A stretch of DNA of 31,138 nucleotides from a virus, in UHGV virus genome UHGV-0171672; one strand, written 5' to 3'. The notes beneath the pieces are model-generated. The model was given only the letters and a program-made list of their open reading frames with translations, searched no databases and was not told the origin of the DNA. Positions 4,124 through 16,843 of the stretch are shown here, piece after piece. Made by a program: the position numbers and the translations under genes. Within the stretch, counting starts at the first letter, position 1, and each line of letters opens with the position of its first letter.

Positions 4124-4354
4124 ATGAGAACAGCCGAATCACCCGGCAGAGAAATAACCGCCAGACCAGCTAACCATCATGCGCATATCAGCATGGCCGC
4201 AAGAAAAGCCGAGCGTGCACATATCTGCGAATTACTGCGCGAGCTGACTGAGACAGCGAAAGAGACACACACCTGTCCACAGGAAACCTGCGCAGCCATT
4301 GAACGACTGATTGCAATACTCGCCAACCCAGACGAACTGAAGGGGTGCGCATAA
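4124..4354 (+). CDS. Hypothetical protein
   Basis: ATG at 4124 with AGGAG 6 nt upstream; stop overlaps the exonuclease start (TAATG). Confidence 0.55.
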   Translation: MRTAESPGREITARPANHHAHISMAARKAERAHICELLRELTETAKETHTCPQETCAAIERLIAILANPDELKGCA

Positions 4355-4935
4355 TGAACCATCTCATGATTGACACCGAAACACTGGGTAACGGACCGGA
4401 CGCAGCCATATTCGCGATTGGGGCGGTGTTTTTCGACCCGTTCACCGGAAAGCTGGGCAAGCAGTTTGAGAAATTCATCGACCCGGTGGATTCAGAACGC
4501 AACGGCGGAACCGTCAATGCAGCCACCGCTGTATGGTGGGCCGGACAATCCGTGGAAGCCAGAGCCTGCCTGCGCAACGCAGATGGAACAGAGCTGGCAG
4601 CAGTGACCGAATTTCTGGCGTTCATTTCACGCAATATGCATGACGAAAGCCCGGGCAATTCACTGAACATATGGTGTAAGGGCGCATCCTTCGATTTCCC
4701 GATCCTGAAATCCGCCATAACACGCACAGCCGGAGAAAAAAGCATCCCCTGGTGCTACTGGAACGAGCGCTGTATGCGCCCGCTTATCGCCATGGCTGAA
4801 TCAACTGGATGGAAAATGCCAGGCAGATCAGGCAAAGAGACCATTGCTCACACCGCGCTGGGCGACGCCGTTTACCAGGCAAAGGTCGTGTCAGAAATCT
4901 GGCAGCGCTTCACAACACCATTCCTGAACATATGA
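4354..4935 (+). CDS. DEDDh-type 3'-5' exonuclease (DnaQ-like fold)
   Basis: N-terminal MIDTETLG motif and later H...GDA-like motif typical of DEDD exonucleases. Confidence 0.75.
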   Translation: MNHLMIDTETLGNGPDAAIFAIGAVFFDPFTGKLGKQFEKFIDPVDSERNGGTVNAATAVWWAGQSVEARACLRNADGTELAAVTEFLAFISRNMHDESPGNSLNIWCKGASFDFPILKSAITRTAGEKSIPWCYWNERCMRPLIAMAESTGWKMPGRSGKETIAHTALGDAVYQAKVVSEIWQRFTTPFLNI

Positions 4936-4944
4936 GGTGAAGCC

Positions 4945-5172
4945 ATGGTCGCCATCCTGAATGTGTGTTGCTGCCCCCCCCTGAACGTGGAAAGAAAAGC
5001 CCGCGCATCGCTGCGTTTATTCCGCGACGGCGTGCGGAATTTTTCACGCATAAAACCCCACGACTACCTGGTAATAAGAATCGGTTTTCGCTGGCGATTG
5101 CTGAGCAAAAACAACGGGGCGTCATGGGATTTATTAACGCACGAAACCTATAACAAAGAGGCCGCGTTATGA
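4945..5172 (+). CDS. Small hypothetical ORF containing a C8 homopolymer, coupled to dam
   Basis: Strong SD GAGGTGA before ATG 4945; ATGA overlap with dam start; C8 run at 4974-4981. Protein sequence is not obviously globular. Confidence 0.3.
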   Translation: MVAILNVCCCPPLNVERKARASLRLFRDGVRNFSRIKPHDYLVIRIGFRWRLLSKNNGASWDLLTHETYNKEAAL

Positions 5173-6113
5173 GCAAAGAACTGTTATCCGGCACGCCGCT
5201 TAAATGGGTGGGCGGAAAAAGTCGCATCATGAACACACTGAAGGCGCATCTGCCAGAAGCAGACTGCCTGGTTGAGCCGTTTGTGGGTGGCGCATCGGTA
5301 TTCATGAACACCAGTTACAAGCGTTACATCCTGGGTGATTCCAATGGTGCGCTGATTAATTTCTACCGGCAAGCCAGGGACAACACCGACAGCCTGATCG
5401 ACGAGGCGAAAACCCTGTTCCTGAACCACAACAACAGGGGTGACTATCTCATCATTCGCGAAACCTTTAACGCAGAGAATCATGCCTTCCTGAACAGCAG
5501 AACGGGAATAAGCGACCGCCGTGAACTGCGACTGGCCGCCATGTTTTTGTACCTGAACCGACACAGCTTTAACGGTTTGTTCCGCGTGAACGGAAAAGGC
5601 GATTTTAACGTGCCTTTCGGCTGCTACCGCAAGCCCTACTTCCCTGAGCGGGAAATCCGCGCATTTGCAGACAAGGCAAACAGCACCCGAACGCTGCTTA
5701 TCCACGCAGATTTTAAGGATACGCTGAACTCTGCCAGTCACCTGTTCGGCATGGGCAACACGCTTTGCGTGTACTGCGATCCCCCTTACCTGCGATTCAG
5801 TGGCCGGGACAATTTCACCGCCTACGGAAAACCATTCGATGAAGACGAGCACGTTCGTCTGAGGGCAGCGCTTGACCGCCTTTCACAGGAAACGGGCGGC
5901 ATGACCAGCATCACCATATCCAATTCCGACACACCGGAAACCAGACGCATTTATCAGGGTTACCGGATGAACGCCATCCAGGCACCACGAAGCGTTGGCG
6001 CAAGAACCCGGGAATCAGCACCGGAGGTTATCGCCACCCTGAGATGCATCACATCCGCCTTATCAACGGTTCGCACTTCTGCGCCACGAACATGGAAGAA
6101 GTACGCGTGCTGA
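5169..6113 (+). CDS. dam: DNA adenine methyltransferase (Dam-like N6-adenine MTase)
   Basis: KWVGGK AdoMet-binding motif near the N-terminus and catalytic DPPY motif. Confidence 0.9.
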   Translation: MSKELLSGTPLKWVGGKSRIMNTLKAHLPEADCLVEPFVGGASVFMNTSYKRYILGDSNGALINFYRQARDNTDSLIDEAKTLFLNHNNRGDYLIIRETFNAENHAFLNSRTGISDRRELRLAAMFLYLNRHSFNGLFRVNGKGDFNVPFGCYRKPYFPEREIRAFADKANSTRTLLIHADFKDTLNSASHLFGMGNTLCVYCDPPYLRFSGRDNFTAYGKPFDEDEHVRLRAALDRLSQETGGMTSITISNSDTPETRRIYQGYRMNAIQAPRSVGARTRESAPEVIATLRCITSALSTVRTSAPRTWKKYAC

Positions 6114-6141: not shown

Positions 6142-6492
6142 ATGGCAGTGATTTATATCGCCGGTCCCATGACCGGATGCAAAGACCACAACAGGACGGC
6201 ATTTTGCGTGGAGGACCTGAAACTTCGGTGCGCCGGAAACATCGTTCTTAATCCTGCCGTACTGCCTGACGGATTAAGCCAGCAGCAGTACATGAGTATT
6301 TGTATTCCGATGCCCATGTGTGCCGATGCCATTTACTTACTGGATGGATGGGAAGAGTCCGCTGGCGCACGGGCTGAGTACGCAATGGCGCTCAAACTGA
6401 ACATGCCAGTGTCATTCCCGGAAAACCGGGCAGCCGGCGAAACCGTCGCGCAGCTGCTTCACAAATCAAAAGCCGCACAGGCGACTGAGTAA
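6142..6492 (+). CDS. DUF4406-like protein (nucleoside 2-deoxyribosyltransferase-like fold)
   Basis: VIYIAGPMTG ... IVLNPAVLPDGLSQQQYM ... YLLDGWEESAGARAEY pattern matches DUF4406 as I remember it; SD GGAGGT. Confidence 0.7.
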   Translation: MAVIYIAGPMTGCKDHNRTAFCVEDLKLRCAGNIVLNPAVLPDGLSQQQYMSICIPMPMCADAIYLLDGWEESAGARAEYAMALKLNMPVSFPENRAAGETVAQLLHKSKAAQATE

Positions 6493-6930
6493 CCGACCGG
6501 AGATCGAAACATGATTGCGCGCAGAGCTACCAACCGTCTCACAGGCTTTATTCCAGGCAAGGTTGATCATGCACTCCATCACGGGGCTGTCACTTTCCTC
6601 AACAAAGGAGAGGCGCGCAATCATGCATTCCGGGGTGAGCACGTGGCGCTGGCTAATCAGTCTTTGATAGCTAAGCGCCTGCCATTCAGCCTTTTCAGCT
6701 CTGATAGAAAGAGAGGCAGCCATGACCTGCCACACCAGAAAGAGCACCACACTGGCGAAAACAAACGTTGCGCTGTCGCAAAAAATGAATGCGGCAACAA
6801 TCGCAAGGAAAGCGCTAATCCTCAGAACCAAGGAAGCGCGACGGTGGAGAAGGCTTGTCATGTGTTCAAGCCAGTAGCTGTACCACAGGTCAAAAAGAAT
6901 TTCGTAATCAGAAGGGAGCTTATCACTCAT
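6466..6930 (-). CDS. Hypothetical membrane protein, antisense orientation
   Basis: ATG at 6930 (MSDKLPSDYEILF...), two hydrophobic helices; the only plausible coding content in 6.5-7.3 kb. Confidence 0.35.
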   Translation of the reverse strand: MSDKLPSDYEILFDLWYSYWLEHMTSLLHRRASLVLRISAFLAIVAAFIFCDSATFVFASVVLFLVWQVMAASLSIRAEKAEWQALSYQRLISQRHVLTPECMIARLSFVEESDSPVMECMINLAWNKACETVGSSARNHVSISGRLLSRLCGF

Positions 6931-7188
6931 CAGAAACACCCCGCGTATGCAGACAATCACCAGTTGCCAGGTGATATTAATTCGCAACATTCTAACCACA
7001 TCAGCACGCAACACAAAAACCGCTTGCCAGCGCTCGTCGTGTCGGGTTACATTTCCGCTGCACCTCATAAAACGGGTGCCGGGATTTCCACCCCGCTGAC
7101 AAACGAAGCGCACAGCCGCGCCAGCGGTTTTTTTGTGCGTACTGTATCGCCACGTCTTTTTCGCGTCAGAATTATGGCGGGGCGTACA

Positions 7189-7222
7189 GGGCCGACTTCG
7201 GTCGGGCCGGTTTCTTCGTTTG
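7189..7222 (+). terminator. Stem-loop with UUCG-type loop followed by T-rich tract
   Basis: GGGCCGAC-TTCG-GTCGGGCC then GGTTTCTTCGTTT. Confidence 0.3.
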
Positions 7223-7313
7223 CCGGTTGTGGAAACCCTGTACGTCTCGCCACCCTGAGTTTTCCACCTCTGGTTGGTGAGTTTTCAAAATTCACAAACG
7301 AAGAGGCCACACC

Positions 7314-11517: not shown

Positions 11518-11835
11518 ATGCCAACACAGGTTGCAACAGAGGGACGACTGGCAGCAGACCCGAACACAAGGAGAACAACCAAAGGAACCAACGTCACAAC
11601 GGCACAACTGGCGGTATCACTACCCTGCCATGGCGCAGAACAGCCAACCACAATGTGGCTTTACCTTATTTCATTCGGGAAGCAGCACGAAGAACTGGCA
11701 AAACACAGAAAAGGCGATCTGATTCTGGTGCACGGAAACTTGCAGGTAAACAGGTATCAGGACAAGTACGGGCAACAGAAAGAGGGCTGGCAGTTGCTGG
11801 CGCAAAGCATTATCAGCTCAAGAACCGGGCGATGA
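11518..11835 (+). CDS. SSB-like OB-fold protein, truncated (no acidic C-tail)
   Basis: GRLAADPNTRRTTKGTNVTTAQLAV ... WLYLISFGKQHEELAKHRKGDLILVHGNLQVNRYQDKYG parallels the E. coli SSB OB-fold core. Confidence 0.6.
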   Translation: MPTQVATEGRLAADPNTRRTTKGTNVTTAQLAVSLPCHGAEQPTTMWLYLISFGKQHEELAKHRKGDLILVHGNLQVNRYQDKYGQQKEGWQLLAQSIISSRTGR

Positions 11836-11845
11836 CTTCACGCAT

Positions 11846-11886
11846 GTTACCCTTAGCAGCGAGGGTAACACAGGATTTCTTTTTTC
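11846..11886 (+). terminator. Rho-independent terminator ending the rightward early operon
   Basis: GTTACCC-N10-GGGTAAC stem followed by ACAGGATTTCTTTTTTC. Confidence 0.6.
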
Positions 11887-12592
11887 AGTCAAACCGAAAT
11901 CGGCCGCTTGTCGCGTATGCATAGGTGACCACCGCACCCAGCGCATTCACACGCTTCTTCACATAAATCACATTACCATCCTGATAGTCACCGTATGGGT
12001 AGCAAATAAAGATTGTTTTTTGCAAATCAGGATCATCAACAAATGCCCCTGAACAACTTTTTGAGCTACCGCGACTGTACTCATAGGGAGCGGAATAGAA
12101 TGAATCTTCACCCGGAAGAAAATATATCAGCGTAACCAGGAGGGTAAACAGAATCATCCAGGTAAGAAGGCACATACCCGAAAAAAACTTAAGATACGAT
12201 GTAACCCCGGTAAATTTAGACCGATCAACCAGGTTCTTTTTCAACAGGCACAGTGAGACAAAAACCGAAAGCACCACAGACACTGAAACAAGGCAGTTTG
12301 TCGTGAACGAATAAAGGTAGGTAATTCTGTAAACATCGTTTCGCCACCAAATAAAAAGAAAAATCCCCCCCAAAACAGAAAGCGTGACAAAAGTTAAATA
12401 AGGATATGAGTAATTTTTCACAGTTCTCACCCGGCAGTCTCCCACTGACTCAGACAGATGAATATCATCACCACCTGCCACAAAAAATCGCAAGATCAAA
12501 ACTACACAAAAGCGCACGAAATTGCACAATTTTTCTAATGTACTTTTTCCCCATTCCGCCCGGTAACGGCGCTGGCTGAGGCCGGTTTGCAC
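11885..12592 (-). CDS. Multi-TM membrane protein (cargo island, module 2); start uncertain
   Basis: At least three hydrophobic helices plus a ~80-aa C-terminal soluble region. The first ~25 codons of the track ORF overlap promoter-like repeat copy A, so a downstream GTG (12421 or 12430, after GGGTGAG) is the more likely start. Confidence 0.5.
   Translation of the reverse strand: MQTGLSQRRYRAEWGKSTLEKLCNFVRFCVVLILRFFVAGGDDIHLSESVGDCRVRTVKNYSYPYLTFVTLSVLGGIFLFIWWRNDVYRITYLYSFTTNCLVSVSVVLSVFVSLCLLKKNLVDRSKFTGVTSYLKFFSGMCLLTWMILFTLLVTLIYFLPGEDSFYSAPYEYSRGSSKSCSGAFVDDPDLQKTIFICYPYGDYQDGNVIYVKKRVNALGAVVTYAYATSGRFRFD
12511..12576. repeat. Promoter-like direct repeat, copy A
   Basis: agcgcacgaaattgcacaatttttctaatgtactttttcccc... 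aligns at ~75% identity (hand alignment) with 15438-15501. Confidence 0.5.
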
Positions 12593-12759
12593 GGTGCACG
12601 AAAAACGAGGCGAGTAGTGGATGAGTAAAAATTAATAATAAGTATAAGCAATGTCGATAAACCAAGACACAACAAGTATTCAACACAATTAATCATGCAC
12701 GTGCAAATAGCAATAACATTAACACATTATTTATATAAAAACAATCTGATATTATTTCG

Positions 12760-12790
12760 GTTGTGGGCTTGGTATTTTCAAACCCACAAC
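12760..12790 (-). terminator. Perfect 8-bp stem hairpin downstream of the three-gene module (non-canonical terminator candidate)
   Basis: GTTGTGGG-N15-CCCACAAC, 35 nt past the stop of the 263-aa gene in an AT-rich spacer; no clean U-tract. Confidence 0.25.
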
Positions 12791-12824
12791 AATAATATTA
12801 TTTCGAGATATTAAACATAGACAA

Positions 12825-13616
12825 TCACCCTATTTTTCTATGCATTTTCATGAGTTCCCTTATTAAGCTAGCATGAAAGATTGATACATCAGAAATCCTT
12901 GTATCAATAGATGAATCAATATTATCAGAAACCTTTTGCTCAAATAAATCGCAGATACCATCAAGTGACTCAATATCTTTTTCCAACTTAGAAAAACCCT
13001 TAAATAGATATAATGAATCCCTTAACTCCCCAAGCTTTGAAAATAGTTGGCTATCTAGTAATGATATAAATTCATCAGAGGGAAGCCCCATCGCATCCTT
13101 AAAATCTTCCGTAACTTCAAAAGCTAATCCATTAATTTTAGGGAGAATAACTTCTCGTAACCAATACCCTTCGTTTATAGCTTCATTTCTTCCTTTATAA
13201 TGCTGCCACAAAGGAACCCCTACAGATGCAATTAGCGCAATAATTGAAATTGCTATAGAGTACCATTCAGGTCCTGATTCAGGAACTCTAACGATATTAT
13301 AGAGATTCCCCGATGAGGTTGAGGGGTAATATCCATTCAGAACATAATTATCAGGTTTATCATAAAGAAGGTGCGGTGTAAACTTCCTTTCATAACTATT
13401 GCATAATTTTAGATCGCTATTTTTTCCAATGCATATATCAGCATTAAAAATGTTTCCACTCTTTGGTTCTATTACGTGAGACTCTGAATTTTGCGAATCC
13501 ATGTTAGACGCGGTTCTTTCTAGATATGTCGCAGAGCAAGCGGATATATTAACAAAAAAAATGACAGGCAATGCTGTCATTTTAAAAACAGAACACAAAT
13601 CAGAAGAACGGAACAT
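12825..13616 (-). CDS. Lipoprotein-like membrane protein with internal TM helix (cargo island)
   Basis: N-terminus MFRSSDLCSVFKMTALPVIFFVNISAC has a lipobox-like ISAC; internal helix WYSIAISIIALIASVGVPLW; 17-nt overlap with the upstream gene. Confidence 0.6.
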   Translation of the reverse strand: MFRSSDLCSVFKMTALPVIFFVNISACSATYLERTASNMDSQNSESHVIEPKSGNIFNADICIGKNSDLKLCNSYERKFTPHLLYDKPDNYVLNGYYPSTSSGNLYNIVRVPESGPEWYSIAISIIALIASVGVPLWQHYKGRNEAINEGYWLREVILPKINGLAFEVTEDFKDAMGLPSDEFISLLDSQLFSKLGELRDSLYLFKGFSKLEKDIESLDGICDLFEQKVSDNIDSSIDTRISDVSIFHASLIRELMKMHRKIG

Positions 13617-13944
13617 TTCGATGTAATCCTCTTCTCACAGCCCTATCCAGCTCAGAAAGCATTCCTTCTTTATAATTCACTCCATCTAAAGATGTTCTGC
13701 TATAAAATTCATTCGGAGATGAAAAAAGAGGCAATATATTCTCTAGCATACCCAAAAAGTATGAGCTTGACACAACCACACCATTCGGAATTGATAGAAA
13801 AATCCTATCATTGTTATCAAAAGTAAAGCGATCTATGCCAAAGAAACTATATGCCTTGCGACCATTATCACGCCCAGCAAATAATTTCTTGCCGCCATCT
13901 TTAACTAATTTATTGAAATCTATATAAATATTTGCCATTTTCAT
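13600..13944 (-). CDS. Small STAS-like (DUF4325-like) protein, partner of the GHKL ATPase
   Basis: 114 aa; segment IFLSIPNGVVVSSSYFLGMLENIL resembles the SSSF-type motif of DUF4325/STAS proteins; SD GAGGAA; 11 nt after the ATPase stop. Confidence 0.55.
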   Translation of the reverse strand: MKMANIYIDFNKLVKDGGKKLFAGRDNGRKAYSFFGIDRFTFDNNDRIFLSIPNGVVVSSSYFLGMLENILPLFSSPNEFYSRTSLDGVNYKEGMLSELDRAVRRGLHRNVPFF

Positions 13945-13955
13945 TTACCTATTCC

Positions 13956-15332
13956 TCAGGTTCTTTGAGTTGCATTTTCCGGTAAAGGAAAACGTATATT
14001 AATCATAACTCCCGGAAAACGGGCTTTCTGCATACACTTAAGATAGGTACGATCTGGTTCAGATTCAAGCCCTGTATTATTAAATGGATAAGTGAATTTG
14101 TCACTTTGGTTATCTAACGTTTGCTTTTTCAACTTATAAGAACCATCAAAGTTTATATGTGTGCATCCAGAAATTAAAGACATTCTGATGTTTCCACTTA
14201 GTTCTTTGGATAGTTCTTTTAAACTATCATGCATATCCTGGAAAAACTTCAATAGCTCAATGGTTCCCGTACCAGAACTATCTGTCTCCGTTTCATTTTT
14301 ACAACTAACCCGCCCCTGCAAAGCAGCGACTGTAATCAAACCTTCTCTAAACATCCCTTTTTTATTTATGTGTTTTTCCACATAAGGGATTATGTGATTG
14401 TTATATGAATAATGTTCTAAAGAAAGTCCTGAAAAAGTTTCATCAATAGTTTTTCCAAAGTTAAAAACAGCTATTTCACATGTTGGCTGTTTTAAGCCAT
14501 TATTTACAAACCCCCTCAAATACCAACGCGGACGCTGCTCAAGCCCACAATGTCTCTCTGCATTATCAAGTAATTCGCCCATGCAAGATGTTAGATGGTT
14601 TTCTGCCTTGCTAACTAATTTTAATTGATGATCACTTAGACACTCGTTTATATAATTAGTGAATTTCTCAGACATTCTATTTTTGGTATCTTGTGCAAAT
14701 GCAGACGCATTTTCCTTGCCGATACTATCAGCAGAGAATATTCTTTTCTTAGGGTTATCTTTTTTCGATTTTTCTGTTTCATCATGCACCTTCCCTGGCG
14801 TCACTTTATTTATTTCTTTAACCAACCCGATGTCACGAATAATTTCTAAATATTTTTCATCCTTCGGATAAATGCCATTAAGTTGTACTTGAGCATCTTT
14901 TAAATTTATATTGTGACGTTTGGCTGAGCTCAGTGCAACACCAAGGAGACATTCCGCACCTAAACAATGCTTTTTATTTTTAGTATAATCAAGCAAATAT
15001 GATTTACGTTTACCCCTGGCAATCAATCTAGTTACACCATGAATAAACAAAAGAGATTTTTCTGGATGATCAAACAAATCGAAATATTTAGGTATTATTA
15101 TTCTATCTTCTTTGCGACGAAGAGTTGCAGTATCATATTTCTTTACGGATGAAATACTTTCAATAAAAGTAGCCACCTGACTTTTCACTGGTGTTACTTC
15201 GTCAGAAAAATGTAACCTTTCATAGGCTTTATATTTAATTCTTCTTTTATTTTTTCTCTCAACGCCTTTTAAAAAGCGAATCCAACCACGTAAAAAGCGT
15301 TTTCTTGCATCCTTTTTATCTATTTTTTTCAC
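13956..15332 (-). CDS. GHKL-type (histidine-kinase-like) ATPase with basic N-terminal domain
   Basis: N-box ELLDNAERH (encoded around 14551-14577) and Gly-rich DSSGTGTIELL; GTG start at 15332 after AAGGTGA; K/R-rich ~240-aa N-terminal region. Confidence 0.7.
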   Translation of the reverse strand: MKKIDKKDARKRFLRGWIRFLKGVERKNKRRIKYKAYERLHFSDEVTPVKSQVATFIESISSVKKYDTATLRRKEDRIIIPKYFDLFDHPEKSLLFIHGVTRLIARGKRKSYLLDYTKNKKHCLGAECLLGVALSSAKRHNINLKDAQVQLNGIYPKDEKYLEIIRDIGLVKEINKVTPGKVHDETEKSKKDNPKKRIFSADSIGKENASAFAQDTKNRMSEKFTNYINECLSDHQLKLVSKAENHLTSCMGELLDNAERHCGLEQRPRWYLRGFVNNGLKQPTCEIAVFNFGKTIDETFSGLSLEHYSYNNHIIPYVEKHINKKGMFREGLITVAALQGRVSCKNETETDSSGTGTIELLKFFQDMHDSLKELSKELSGNIRMSLISGCTHINFDGSYKLKKQTLDNQSDKFTYPFNNTGLESEPDRTYLKCMQKARFPGVMINIRFPLPENATQRT

Positions 15333-15429
15333 TATTCACCTTACTTAACAAACATCTATACTACTTCGTTGCAAAGTATACATATCACTTGCTAATACAC
15401 AATATGGCTTCGAGATAATCCGCAGCATC

Positions 15430-15456
15430 TGCACAATAGTGCACAAATTTGCATAA
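15430..15456. promoter_or_regulatory. Three TGCA(C/T)AA heptamers at 10-bp spacing (candidate regulator binding array)
   Basis: TGCACAAtagTGCACAAattTGCATAA; two related copies in repeat A (GCGCACG at 12512, TGCACAA at 12523). Confidence 0.35.
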
Positions 15457-15501
15457 TTTTTTTGAACGACTTTTTGCCCTTCCGGCCCGCGTGGCGGCTG
15501 G
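15438..15501. repeat. Promoter-like direct repeat, copy B (upstream of the GHKL ATPase operon)
   Basis: agtgcacaaatttgcataatttttttgaacgactttttgccc...; see copy A at 12511-12576. Confidence 0.5.
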
Positions 15502-15700
15502 ATCCGTCAAGGATCCGTGCGTGCACAAAAAAACACGCTTTTTCTGCGCGCAGGCGACGAGGGAAGGGCGCCCGAATTGAGGGGTGGAAGGCAGGTTGCT
15601 TTATTTGGGGTCGTATTGCGCGTGATACGCCAGCAGTGAAGCCTGTTTTAAAAAACCACATCAAAACATGGTCAGGGAAACAGGCCGTCAGAATGCGTCT

Positions 15701-15799: not shown

Positions 15800-16843
15800 T
15801 CAGCTGGCACCATCCTGAAGCAGCGAATAGGGATTAAAGCGCATCACTTCAACCCCAAGCCATTCATTGACATGCTTCATCGCTTCCATGACCGGTTGCA
15901 ACTCGTTGATGAAAAATACCCTCGCCGCCTTCTCAACGTCACCGAACGCCGCGTTCCCGTCAGGCATTGCCCCCATCAGCTGAGGCGGTACACGGTGAGC
16001 CGCAAGGATATCGTCGCGGGTACCCCCCTTGATGTTAAGGAATTCGTCCTTCGCGGTGATTTGCTGGAACGGCAGTATTTGCACACCATCCTTGCCGCCA
16101 CCTGGCGCGTGCAGAAGGATATTGCGGAACGCCCCCTTGCCACGGGATTCCGTGAGTGTTTTCTTGATGGCTTCCACGCTTTCAGCGTTTGCCTGGGCGG
16201 CACCAACATAGACAATGCACCCGGCATGTGAACCGTTGTCATAGTAGAGCTTGCGGAACGTATCCGCTGAGTTCGACAGACTCACCGACAGCAACCCACC
16301 GATATACTCCGGCATCCCGTAGATTTCCTGGTTGATATCGGGGTTCAGAACGTGGCACACAGCCCCCTTACGGAAAGCAAATTCAGAACCATCATCATTG
16401 AGGTACCAGTACGTATCGAGATCACTGCCCCGCCGCGTGTATTTCGCCAGCGCAGGACGAAGCGCAATGGGTTCACCGAACTTGTTGCGGCGGACTTCAA
16501 GATAGGCATTACCGAACACGAACCAGTCCAGCGCAAACGCGGAAAACGCCTGGCGGGACAGTAGCGGATGAGGAACAAAGCAGCCGTTCAGGGCATTACG
16601 CTTAAAATACAGGGCCGACTGGTGCCATGATGCACGACGCGAGGCGCGAGCAATGGCATTCCAGTCCATGGGGGTGTCATAGTAGCGGCCATTATCGGCG
16701 CACGACATGTTATCAAGCAGATCAAGACGGCTTGCTTCATAAGGACCGTCAAACGTGAAAGCACTGAGTGACGGCGCTGATTTCAGTGCATCAGCCAGTG
16801 AGCCCGTGCCGCGCTTTCCGGTGTATTTTTTACGTTTACTCAT
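15800..16843 (-). CDS. Q: Portal protein (P2 gpQ-like)
   Basis: 347 aa at the P2 Q position; sequence recognisable as P2-family portal; 5-nt gap after P. Confidence 0.9.
   Translation of the reverse strand: MSKRKKYTGKRGTGSLADALKSAPSLSAFTFDGPYEASRLDLLDNMSCADNGRYYDTPMDWNAIARASRRASWHQSALYFKRNALNGCFVPHPLLSRQAFSAFALDWFVFGNAYLEVRRNKFGEPIALRPALAKYTRRGSDLDTYWYLNDDGSEFAFRKGAVCHVLNPDINQEIYGMPEYIGGLLSVSLSNSADTFRKLYYDNGSHAGCIVYVGAAQANAESVEAIKKTLTESRGKGAFRNILLHAPGGGKDGVQILPFQQITAKDEFLNIKGGTRDDILAAHRVPPQLMGAMPDGNAAFGDVEKAARVFFINELQPVMEAMKHVNEWLGVEVMRFNPYSLLQDGAS

Follow-up and report, generated by a model that had tools for sequence, protein, structure and literature searches.

A three-gene cassette encoding a putative STAS-GHKL kinase, a small STAS-like protein and a membrane protein in the cos-proximal hotspot of a P2-like prophage of E. 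coli: a candidate anti-phage system

Some of the protein kinases that combine a STAS with a GHKL domain are now known to act through small STAS-type substrates in bacterial immunity. In VapKSC, the STAS-GHKL kinase VapK phosphorylates the STAS antitoxin VapS and releases the PIN toxin VapC; the phosphorylation is activated by ssDNA, and the system, which has been described as toxin-antitoxin-like, protects against phage Bas42 (Chambers et al., EMBO J 2026, PMC13373217). CapK and CapS, an ssDNA-activated kinase and a STAS-wHTH repressor, control CBASS, Bub and Thoeris operons (PMC13373217). For the P2-like phages, the gpA-gpQ interval near cos is a validated defence hotspot, with cargo that includes old, tin, retrons, DprA-PRTase, DUF4238, 'hp+hp+hp'/Rst_3HP and 2TM+1TM+TIR, and about a quarter of these hotspots hold partition-type cargo instead of defence genes (Rousset et al. 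2022, PMC9122126). A recognisable defence gene is missing from the hotspot in about 19% of P2-like elements (PMC13586616).

The window analysed here is a stretch of 31,138 nucleotides (UHGV virus genome UHGV-0171672) from a P2-like prophage of E. coli, in which gpA, a MarR gene and ssb (11518-11835) are followed by the block of interest and then by the portal (15800-16843, minus strand) and terminase genes. This gene order agrees with the initial annotation, which had placed the block after the replication operon, before the cos/portal region and in the tin/old hotspot of P2; the locus is indeed the hotspot that P2-like phages have between gpA and gpQ, close to cos (Rousset 2022, PMC9122126). 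The terminator that had been proposed behind ssb (11846-11886) is plausible, with a U-run behind a hairpin of 10 bp (z -2.1), and all four minus-strand ORFs of the block were recovered at exactly the coordinates listed for them. The AT-richness, originally judged by eye, proved on computation to be real and large, with a GC content of 0.34-0.36 in 500-nt windows from 12501 to 15500 and of 0.51-0.59 on either side, or 34% for 12.6–15.4 kb as compared to ~55% in the flanks. By gene, the values are 0.343 for A, 0.351 for B and 0.347 for C, against 0.55 for the flanking phage genes.

The ~3.5-kb block is AT-rich, as had been claimed, but it is not a single unit, and the four-gene system envisaged for it reduces to three genes. 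The multi-TM gene D (11885..12592, minus strand), an ORF of 235 aa with a GTG start and four TM-like segments, has a GC content of 0.436, intermediate between the cassette and the flanks, and stays with the phage backbone: it occurs without A-B-C in ~960 E. coli genomes, and it has relatives of its own in lambdoid phages (46% identity to a 'putative membrane protein' of phages 434, mEp332 and 2B8). Gene D is a backbone-linked membrane-protein moron that lies outside the triad. The mobile unit is a cassette of ~3 kb that comprises the three genes A (458 aa), B (114 aa) and C (263 aa) at 12612–15565, the exchanged and evenly AT-rich stretch extending from 12612 to about 15428/15565.

The limits of this unit were drawn from comparisons with other prophages, by blastn against two loci (L003 and L002) and by megablast. 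Homology to cassette-free prophage backbones stops at 12611, and homology to another cassette-bearing backbone begins at 12612, which marks the left junction (unstranded). On the other side, a conserved cos-proximal block of 137 bp (15429..15565, unstranded) is common to P88-like and other P2-like phages, matches 14 phage records at 92-96% identity, is present in both L002 and L003 and is likely to be the right-hand recombination anchor for cassette exchange. The exchange predicted for this interval is borne out by the recurrence of the same cassette, 99.3% identical, in a P2-like prophage with another backbone and by the empty sites, devoid of A-B-C, of the ~960 E. coli genomes noted above; the A-to-Q interval, compared across P2-like prophages as had been suggested, is variable between otherwise near-identical prophages. 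The two copies of the cassette differ at 20 positions, of which 12 are intergenic, two are in A (both synonymous), none is in B and six are in C (two of them non-synonymous). This pattern, with all of the ORFs intact, indicates that function is maintained. The cassette-specific region upstream of A (15333..15428, minus strand) holds the Shine-Dalgarno sequence AAGGTGA, as read from the sequence, and probably the native promoter; a promoter scan of the region gave no signal above chance. Just past the stop codon of C is a strong hairpin (12749..12798, minus strand; dG -25.5 kcal/mol, z -4.0) that none of 200 shuffled sequences matched in folding and that is followed by a T-run; it is likely to be the transcription terminator of the cassette.

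Gene A (13956..15332, minus strand; RefSeq WP_000717775.1, 'hypothetical protein') has a GTG start and encodes a putative protein kinase. Its N-terminus is a single long basic helix (aa 6-35), followed by a STAS-like domain (about aa 72-202; 14727..15119, minus strand) and then by a GHKL (Bergerat-fold) kinase domain (about aa 241-450; 13983..14612, minus strand); no HTH was found in the protein. [quoted passage not shown] The N-box residues E253, N257 and H261 are invariant, as are the glycines G293, G354 and G356; for E253, N257 and the three glycines this holds in 190 of 190 sequences. All motifs of an active enzyme are present except for the Asp of the G1 box, at which position A has Asn291 and the family has N in 170, S in 15 and D in 3 of the 190 sequences (N 89%, S 8%). 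In GHKL proteins this Asp contacts adenine, and its replacement in other members of the superfamily abolishes ATP binding; the kinase activity of A is therefore not assured. The canonical phospho-serine position of the STAS domain (aa 123) is D, C, G or S across the family, and because of this variation the domain is probably a regulatory or sensor domain of A rather than a substrate. The A family amounts to at least 1,356 clusters at 50% identity, every one of which lacks an annotation.

Gene B (13600..13944, minus strand; RefSeq WP_000781372.1) lies directly downstream of A at every locus seen and encodes a small alpha/beta protein, in whose 114 residues and structure model no wHTH or other extra domain was found. 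An AF2 model of the protein (pLDDT 90) has a helix at residues 60-67, alpha2, with serines at its N-cap. These serines, Ser59-Ser60-Ser61 (codons at 13762..13770, minus strand), occur without exception in the 39 sequences compared and constitute a candidate phosphorylation site. Together with the size and gene position of B, they mirror VapS (S48) and Ser58 of SpoIIAA, and they align with the S48 region of VapS; the overall similarity of B to VapS is not significant. The sole match of B among PDB profiles is the STAS protein TM1081, aligned through the DSxxLG motif at the serine patch. This match and other weak signals for a STAS fold give weak support to the initial description of B as a STAS-like partner; it would be a divergent STAS-like protein.

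Gene C (12825..13616, minus strand), the ORF of which overlaps that of B (by 17 nt in this copy), encodes an orphan protein that crosses the membrane once. Its N-terminus resembles a signal or lipobox sequence (ISAC, Cys27) and leads into a variable periplasmic part, which is followed by a TM helix (aa 118-139; 13200..13265, minus strand; score 1.96 in a 19-residue Kyte-Doolittle window) and a conserved, helical cytoplasmic domain of ~120 aa. Hydropathy and alignment of seven loci identify the TM helix and the cytoplasmic domain as the conserved core of the protein, and the periplasmic part as fast-evolving, very short in some homologs and essentially absent in one (L010). The juxtamembrane motif AINEGYWLREVILP behind the TM helix is kept in all of the C homologs, down to 15-20% identity, and residues A127, W152 and P159 are invariant in an alignment of 21 sequences. 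The initial annotation had C as a lipoprotein-like membrane protein; a membrane protein it is, and its ISAC does resemble a lipobox, but the lipoprotein feature is not kept in the family. No relatives of C were found in Pfam or the PDB, and nothing similar among known effectors.

The resemblance of this triad to VapKSC is mainly one of design. Both are three-gene operons with the same order of a STAS-GHKL kinase, a protein of ~115 aa and an effector (a proposed effector in the case of C); in both, the small protein has an invariant Ser at the N-terminus of alpha2 (S48 in the 116 aa of VapS, Ser59-61 in B), the N-box of the kinase has the form E-x3-N-x3-H-S, a phosphatase gene is lacking, and the genes are found in mobile elements and near other defence genes. 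The third gene, however, encodes the PIN nuclease VapC in the one case and an orphan membrane protein in the other. VapK, at 296 aa, is shorter than A, in which the linker is longer and the basic N-terminal helix is additional, and the G1 box reads DFGVG in VapK and DSGLG in CapK, with Asn at that Asp in A. VapS has a STAS fold, as compared to the weakly detectable one of B. The sequence homology of A to CapK and VapK appears marginal from profile comparisons: an HMM of the A family gave them scores between 0.2 and 7.0 bits, as against 6.8 for the top-scoring of 1,000 shuffles, and hhalign of A against a four-sequence CapK/VapK profile gave a co-linear alignment over 196 columns with a P of 0.0034 and a probability of 9%. 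CapK/CapS is similar to A-B in that a STAS-GHKL kinase gene precedes the gene for a STAS-type substrate and in its ties to immunity loci, but CapK has an N-terminal HTH and CapS a C-terminal wHTH, both of which are missing from A and B, and CapK/CapS stands upstream of an immune operon, whereas only C and the hairpin lie downstream of A-B. In SpoIIAB-SpoIIAA, RsbW-RsbV and SiaB-SiaC the kinase and STAS domains are not fused as they are in A. The SpoIIAB/RsbW modules, moreover, have a sigma-factor target and a PP2C phosphatase, neither of which accompanies the triad, and the triad differs from them also in being mobile-element cargo and in its membrane protein partner and non-canonical G1 box.

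None of the 5,027 models of PADLOC-DB v2 matched A, B, C or D at E values up to 0.1, and 30 diverse homologs of A gave chance-level matches only. No name for the system was found among Pfam, NCBIfam and PADLOC models or in the searchable literature, in keeping with the original remark that the combination was not recognised as a named defence system; the design, on the other hand, does have a close mechanistic parallel in CapK/CapS and VapKSC (PMC13373217). The cassette shares with other cargo of the P2 hotspot its locus, its size of ~3 kb, its low GC content, its own (here probable) promoter and its swapping between near-identical prophages, and with 2TM+1TM+TIR the pairing of a cytoplasmic enzyme with small membrane proteins, but the proteins of the hotspot systems validated by Rousset et al. 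(PMC9122126) are unrelated to the triad in sequence. Rst_3HP ('hp + hp + hp'; pFR109, from E. coli E1114) was considered and set aside, as the pFR109 proteins differ from A, B and C in sequence and size. Table S5A of Rousset 2022 (PMC9122126) gives exactly these A, B and C proteins for this locus, as a catalogue entry only, and their strings are absent from Tables S2A and S2B.

The order A-B-C is kept in 11 contexts, down to ~28% identity, with sizes of ~417-469 aa for A, ~107-115 for B and ~186-263 for C. These contexts include P2 hotspots, an Aeromonas chromosome, a GpJ-type phage contig, integrase-flanked islands and Pantoea and Vibrio plasmids; a diverged copy (50% identity) occupies the same hotspot in Klebsiella P2-like prophages, and one triad directly adjoins a complete type III RM system. 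No homologs were found among ~50,700 deposited phage genomes, nor was any sigma-factor or PP2C signature found in A, B, C or their neighbours at the 11 loci.

On balance, and tentatively, we regard the cassette as a horizontally exchanged accessory module that specifies an anti-phage system, of the abortive-infection or exclusion kind, built on an anti-sigma-type phospho-switch; its anti-phage activity we infer from context. In this scheme, A would be a cytoplasmic sensor kinase whose STAS domain and basic N-terminal helix regulate the GHKL domain, and B would be an adaptor that holds the cytoplasmic domain of C inactive in uninfected lysogens. Upon an infection cue, which by analogy with CapK/VapK might be a nucleic acid (ssDNA, for example), A would phosphorylate B at Ser59-61, and the phosphorylated B would dissociate and leave C, as the putative effector, to damage or depolarise the inner membrane, such that the cell would be stopped while the competing phage is still immature. 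As no phosphatase is encoded, the switch would run in one direction only. A broader version of this proposal, which we consider possible but doubtful, is that the triad is the first representative of an extensive family of defence systems, comprising at least 1,300 clusters, in which an Asn-pocket anti-sigma-type kinase senses infection and the one-way phosphorylation of a diverged STAS-like adaptor unleashes a new single-pass membrane effector. Partner switching would then gate membrane-based abortive infection, and the triad, because it is independent of VapKSC in sequence, might possibly be a convergent or very ancient sister design.

The position of the triad immediately past parAB on two plasmids, of Pantoea and Vibrio, means that a role in stabilisation or addiction fits there as well as defence does. 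C could be a toxin that acts at the membrane and B the antitoxin to it, labile or switchable and modulated by A, so that the carrier prophage or plasmid is stabilised by post-segregational killing and any effect on phages is secondary; the overlap of the B and C ORFs and the pairing of a small protein with a membrane protein resemble toxin-antitoxin pairs, and the partition-type cargo of P2 hotspots (PMC9122126) and the description of VapKSC (PMC13373217) cited above point in the same direction. We nevertheless hold this to be unlikely as the main function, given that the triad is also found in chromosomal islands and beside the type III RM system, and that stabilisation would not explain why a sensor kinase of such size and strict conservation is needed, but the two roles are not mutually exclusive.

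The direction of signalling might also be the reverse of that proposed, with C sensing adsorption, injection or membrane stress at the envelope through its periplasmic part and signalling through B, and with A as the effector that phosphorylates host or phage proteins, in the manner of Stk2-type defence kinases. C spans the membrane, its periplasmic region varies as would be expected of a surface exposed to diverse phages, and A retains nearly all of the active-enzyme motifs; yet the periplasmic part is dispensable, the conserved core of C lies elsewhere, SpoIIAB-class kinases are dedicated to STAS substrates and B bears the invariant serine patch expected of such a substrate, so that this arrangement seems quite unlikely. 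CapK and CapS demonstrate that a module of this type can act purely in transcriptional regulation (PMC13373217), and the triad could accordingly be a partner-switching regulator for lysogenic conversion, with A binding a transcription factor of the host or of a phage in anti-sigma fashion, B antagonising A and C relaying membrane or stress signals, so as to tune the expression of prophage or host genes with no direct role in defence. We think this improbable: the triad encodes no sigma factor, DNA-binding domain (neither a wHTH in B nor an HTH in A) or PP2C phosphatase, the strong hairpin after the cassette is followed by no regulated operon, and the three genes move as a self-contained unit among unrelated replicons.

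The cassette fills one of the 'unknown' entries of the P2 hotspot, and it raises the questions of which ligand is bound by a GHKL kinase that has Asn in place of the adenine-binding Asp, what activates the kinase and how the single-pass protein C would stop a cell. If the cassette protects against phage, then a widespread and wholly unannotated three-gene family would join the catalogue of defence systems, and the kinase-STAS phospho-switch, for which the known outputs to date are the repressor CapS and the PIN toxin VapC, would be a general trigger module that is also able to drive a membrane effector.

The AT-rich island lies in a P2-like prophage whose genes in the window include those for the integrase, HTH repressor, Cox, Dam methylase, gpA replication endonuclease, MarR, ssb, portal, terminase and capsid. 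It occupies the interval that separates the replication operon from the portal gene, and a hairpin of 10 bp with a U-run is found 3' of ssb. The low GC content that the initial annotation had judged by eye is real: each 500-nt window from 12501 to 15500 has a GC content of 0.34-0.36, against 0.51-0.59 on both sides. The four minus-strand ORFs of that annotation are likewise present, with exactly its coordinates, and are referred to here as A (13956-15332, 458 aa), B (13600-13944, 114 aa), C (12825-13616, 263 aa) and D (11885-12592, 235 aa). At the gene level, GC is 0.343 in A, 0.351 in B and 0.347 in C, compared with 0.55 for the flanking phage genes. The C ORF overlaps B by 17 nt and is followed by a strong hairpin (12749-12798; dG -25.5 kcal/mol, z -4.0). 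A scan for sigma-70 promoters, which is uninformative in DNA of such AT content, gave 15 sites where 13.2 were expected. The interval corresponds to the cos-proximal gpA-gpQ hotspot, which is occupied by old and tin in P2 and by many defence systems in its relatives (Rousset et al., PMC9122126), as the proposed tin/old-type position had implied.

A megablast comparison of the island with 5,426 complete E. coli genomes detected the full 3.8 kb in one genome and the segment 12612-15565, containing A, B and C, in nine further genomes (99.3% identity) that have a different P2-like backbone, in which the cassette is located directly 3' of the replication endonuclease gene without MarR, ssb or D. 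Another ~960 genomes carry the backbone of this window, including ssb and D and then portal, without A-B-C. The cassette exchange envisaged for the gpA-gpQ interval is thus borne out. By local blastn, the junctions of the cassette map to 12611/12612 and to the inside of a conserved 137-bp cos-proximal block (15429-15565), which is common to P88-like and other P2-like phages at 92-96% identity, is present in cassette-bearing and cassette-free prophages alike, and is probably a homologous-recombination anchor for the exchange of hotspot cargo. The 20 differences between two copies of the cassette are mostly intergenic (12) or synonymous, with 6 in C (2 of them non-synonymous), 2 synonymous changes in A and none in B, which indicates that the cassette genes are being maintained.

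The unit that moves is therefore one of three genes rather than the four initially grouped together. D was rejected as a fourth component, being found without the A-B-C triad in the ~960 genomes and missing where the triad occupies the other backbone. It is a moron in its own right, linked to the backbone and carried as cargo in this hotspot. Its GC content is intermediate (0.436), its product has four TM-like segments, and its relatives (46% identity) are annotated as "putative membrane protein" in the lambdoid phages 434, mEp332 and 2B8. D could be a membrane protein of the superinfection-exclusion type. Since the match to PHROG 1416 is confined to the last 90 aa, the true start codon of D is uncertain.

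Elsewhere in the window, the early operon (4345-6113, plus strand) contains a gene of the Rv2179c-like 3'-5' exoribonuclease family (4345-4935) and a Dam-type N6-adenine methyltransferase gene (5169-6113), a pair that is also present in Klebsiella P2-like prophages. Rfam models detected, above their gathering thresholds, an isrK Hfq-binding RNA (7060-7134, plus strand, 64 bits) and a C4 antisense RNA (7170-7257, plus strand, 82 bits), that is, a P1/P7-type antisense immunity RNA pair within the early region of a P2-like prophage. Part of this stretch (7060-7257) is antisense to the 5' end of an orphan minus-strand ORF (6466-7113, 215 aa) that lies on the opposite strand inside the rightward early operon, has no Pfam match and bears the label "hypothetical protein" in two related prophages (L001 and L003). 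It could represent another moron or an immunity-related gene tied to the adjacent isrK/C4 RNAs.

Profile searches of Pfam, NCBIfam and PADLOC yielded no match for A, B or C, nor for D, in agreement with the earlier view that the combination does not correspond to a named system; PHROGs profiles returned only families of unknown function for A-D, and RefSeq labels A, B and C as hypothetical. Sequence and profile searches of the PDB gave no match for A, for which the fold search was the sole informative structural comparison. A word-indexed search collected only 56 clusters of A relatives; with an exhaustive profile search the number rose to 1,356 (clustering at 50% identity), of which 652 reached E<=1e-30. 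Nearly all are full-length, and the named members, from Enterobacterales, Aeromonas, Vibrio and one "[Bacillus]" isolate, are all called "hypothetical protein". In A, a basic helix at the N-terminus (aa 6-35) is joined to a STAS-like domain (~aa 72-202) and a putative kinase domain of the SpoIIAB/RsbW GHKL class (~aa 241-450). The original assignment as a GHKL ATPase holds for the fold and the N-box, but it had missed the N-terminal STAS domain and the SpoIIAB/RsbW-type class. In an alignment of 190 family members, E253 and N257 of the N-box do not vary, nor do the lid glycines G293, G354 and G356; H261 is conserved in 189, and the STAS domain has no conserved serine at the phospho-site position. 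Every ATP-site motif is invariant other than the G1-box Asp, which contacts adenine in other GHKL proteins and is present in VapK (DFGVG) and CapK (DSGLG). The matching position is Asn in 170/190 sequences, Ser in 15 and Asp in 3; in A of the window it is N291 (codon 14460-14462, minus strand). This substitution suggests that the pocket has a changed nucleotide preference or binds in an unusual way, and Asn291 is a genuine caveat for the predicted kinase activity of A.

The B gene is always immediately 3' of A across the triad loci compared. Its product is modeled (pLDDT 90) as a small alternating beta/alpha fold in which the motif Ser59-Ser60-Ser61-Tyr-Phe-Leu-Gly, invariant in 39/39 sequences, caps the N-terminus of the second long helix, where the phosphorylated serine of SpoIIAA-type STAS proteins sits. 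The latter position is likewise given in PMC13373217. The sole match of B among PDB profiles is the STAS protein TM1081 (E 0.4), aligned via the Ser59-61 motif; one of 22 B family members matches the "STAS-like" DUF4325 (E 0.019), and Foldseek found no match. Support for B being a STAS domain, as the initial annotation had proposed, is only moderate.

C diverges faster than A and B, its nearest non-identical homolog being 51% identical as compared with 70-77% for those two, and searches of Pfam and the PDB brought up no relatives. Comparison of seven loci and an alignment of 21 sequences defined a conserved core of one TM helix (aa 118-139 in the window), a juxtamembrane motif (AINEGYWLREVILP in the window, with W152 and P159 invariant in the 21 sequences) and, on the cytoplasmic side, a helical domain of ~120 aa. 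Outside the cytoplasm, the N-terminal part varies among loci from essentially absent to ~115 aa. The description of C as a lipoprotein-like membrane protein fits the TM helix and the lipobox-like ISAC of this copy, but the lipobox occurs in only some family members.

The order and sizes of A-B-C are kept down to ~28% identity in diverse settings: on the Aeromonas dhakensis chromosome outside any prophage, in the same portal-gpA hotspot of Klebsiella P2-like prophages, on a phage contig that also has tail (GpJ-type) and lysis genes, and in integrase-flanked islands adjoining a ResIII restriction enzyme. A distant triad (L010, 373-7208; 441-112-186 aa), in which the periplasmic part of C is almost absent, comes right after a complete type III RM pair (PADLOC models: Mod E 1e-213, Res E 2e-168) and is followed by a transposase, which is a typical defence-island arrangement. 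No A homolog was found by tblastn in ~50,700 deposited phage genomes, and only six homologs turned up in PLSDB plasmids.

The cassette proteins themselves (WP_000717775, WP_000781372 and WP_012565106/WP_001761865) appear as "hypothetical + hypothetical + hypothetical" in Table S5A of P2 loci (Rousset, PMC9122126), a locus catalogue only; that study cloned and tested other systems. Identity of the cassette with Rst_3HP ("three hypothetical proteins", Rousset 2022) was rejected, the pFR109 proteins being unrelated. In a 2026 survey of P2/P4 hotspots, the unknowns tested came from P4 loci only (PMC13586616). The cassette accessions are not mentioned in the DefensePredictor paper and its supplements or elsewhere in the literature searched, and where other papers mention HATPase, they mean unrelated systems of the two-component type, such as Ambrosia.

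The closest precedent for the triad is VapKSC/CapK-CapS (Chambers et al., EMBO J 2026, PMC13373217). On activation by ssDNA, CapK (HTH-STAS-GHKL) phosphorylates CapS (STAS-wHTH), a repressor. The VapKSC operon of three genes protects against phage Bas42, and its proposed mechanism is phosphorylation of VapS, a STAS protein of 116 aa, at S48 by VapK (STAS-GHKL), with release of the PIN toxin VapC (PMC13373217). The triad similarly combines a STAS-GHKL putative kinase, a small invariant-serine protein and a candidate effector without a phosphatase, but its third gene does not encode a PIN nuclease. The A-family HMM scored CapK and VapK no better than shuffles. Profile-profile comparison (P 0.003, probability 9%) was co-linear through the STAS domain, N-box and G1 box. 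This homology test is weak, as the VapK profile is shallow: GTDB representative genomes supplied one close relative and plasmids another. For B and VapS, P was 0.3. On these scores, and with a third gene of another kind, we class the triad as one that may work like VapKSC rather than as a demonstrated member of that family.

The folds, motifs, topology, synteny, mobility and context of the triad are what the analysis shows. We infer an anti-phage mechanism via a phospho-switch, whereby A would sense an infection cue and phosphorylate B at Ser59-61, phospho-B would release the cytoplasmic domain of C, and the freed C would disrupt the inner membrane and abort the infection. As no phosphatase is encoded, the switch would be one-way. 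It is also possible that the triad is an addiction or stabilisation module, since it lies immediately 3' of parA/parB on plasmids of Pantoea agglomerans (L014, 5818-8079) and Vibrio rarus (L015, 5767-8146). An assignment of sensor and effector roles in the reverse sense and a partner-switch regulator with no role in defence are both less likely, given that the triad has no DNA-binding, sigma or phosphatase component, that its mobility is self-contained and that the periplasmic part of C is dispensable.

The observation in the initial annotation holds, and its interpretation as a candidate anti-phage system is supported in part, now sharpened to a three-gene cassette. The locus is best described as an unnamed candidate cassette for defence, its design agreeing with a mechanism published in 2026, to which it would add a different candidate effector, a divergent putative kinase family and a non-canonical nucleotide pocket.
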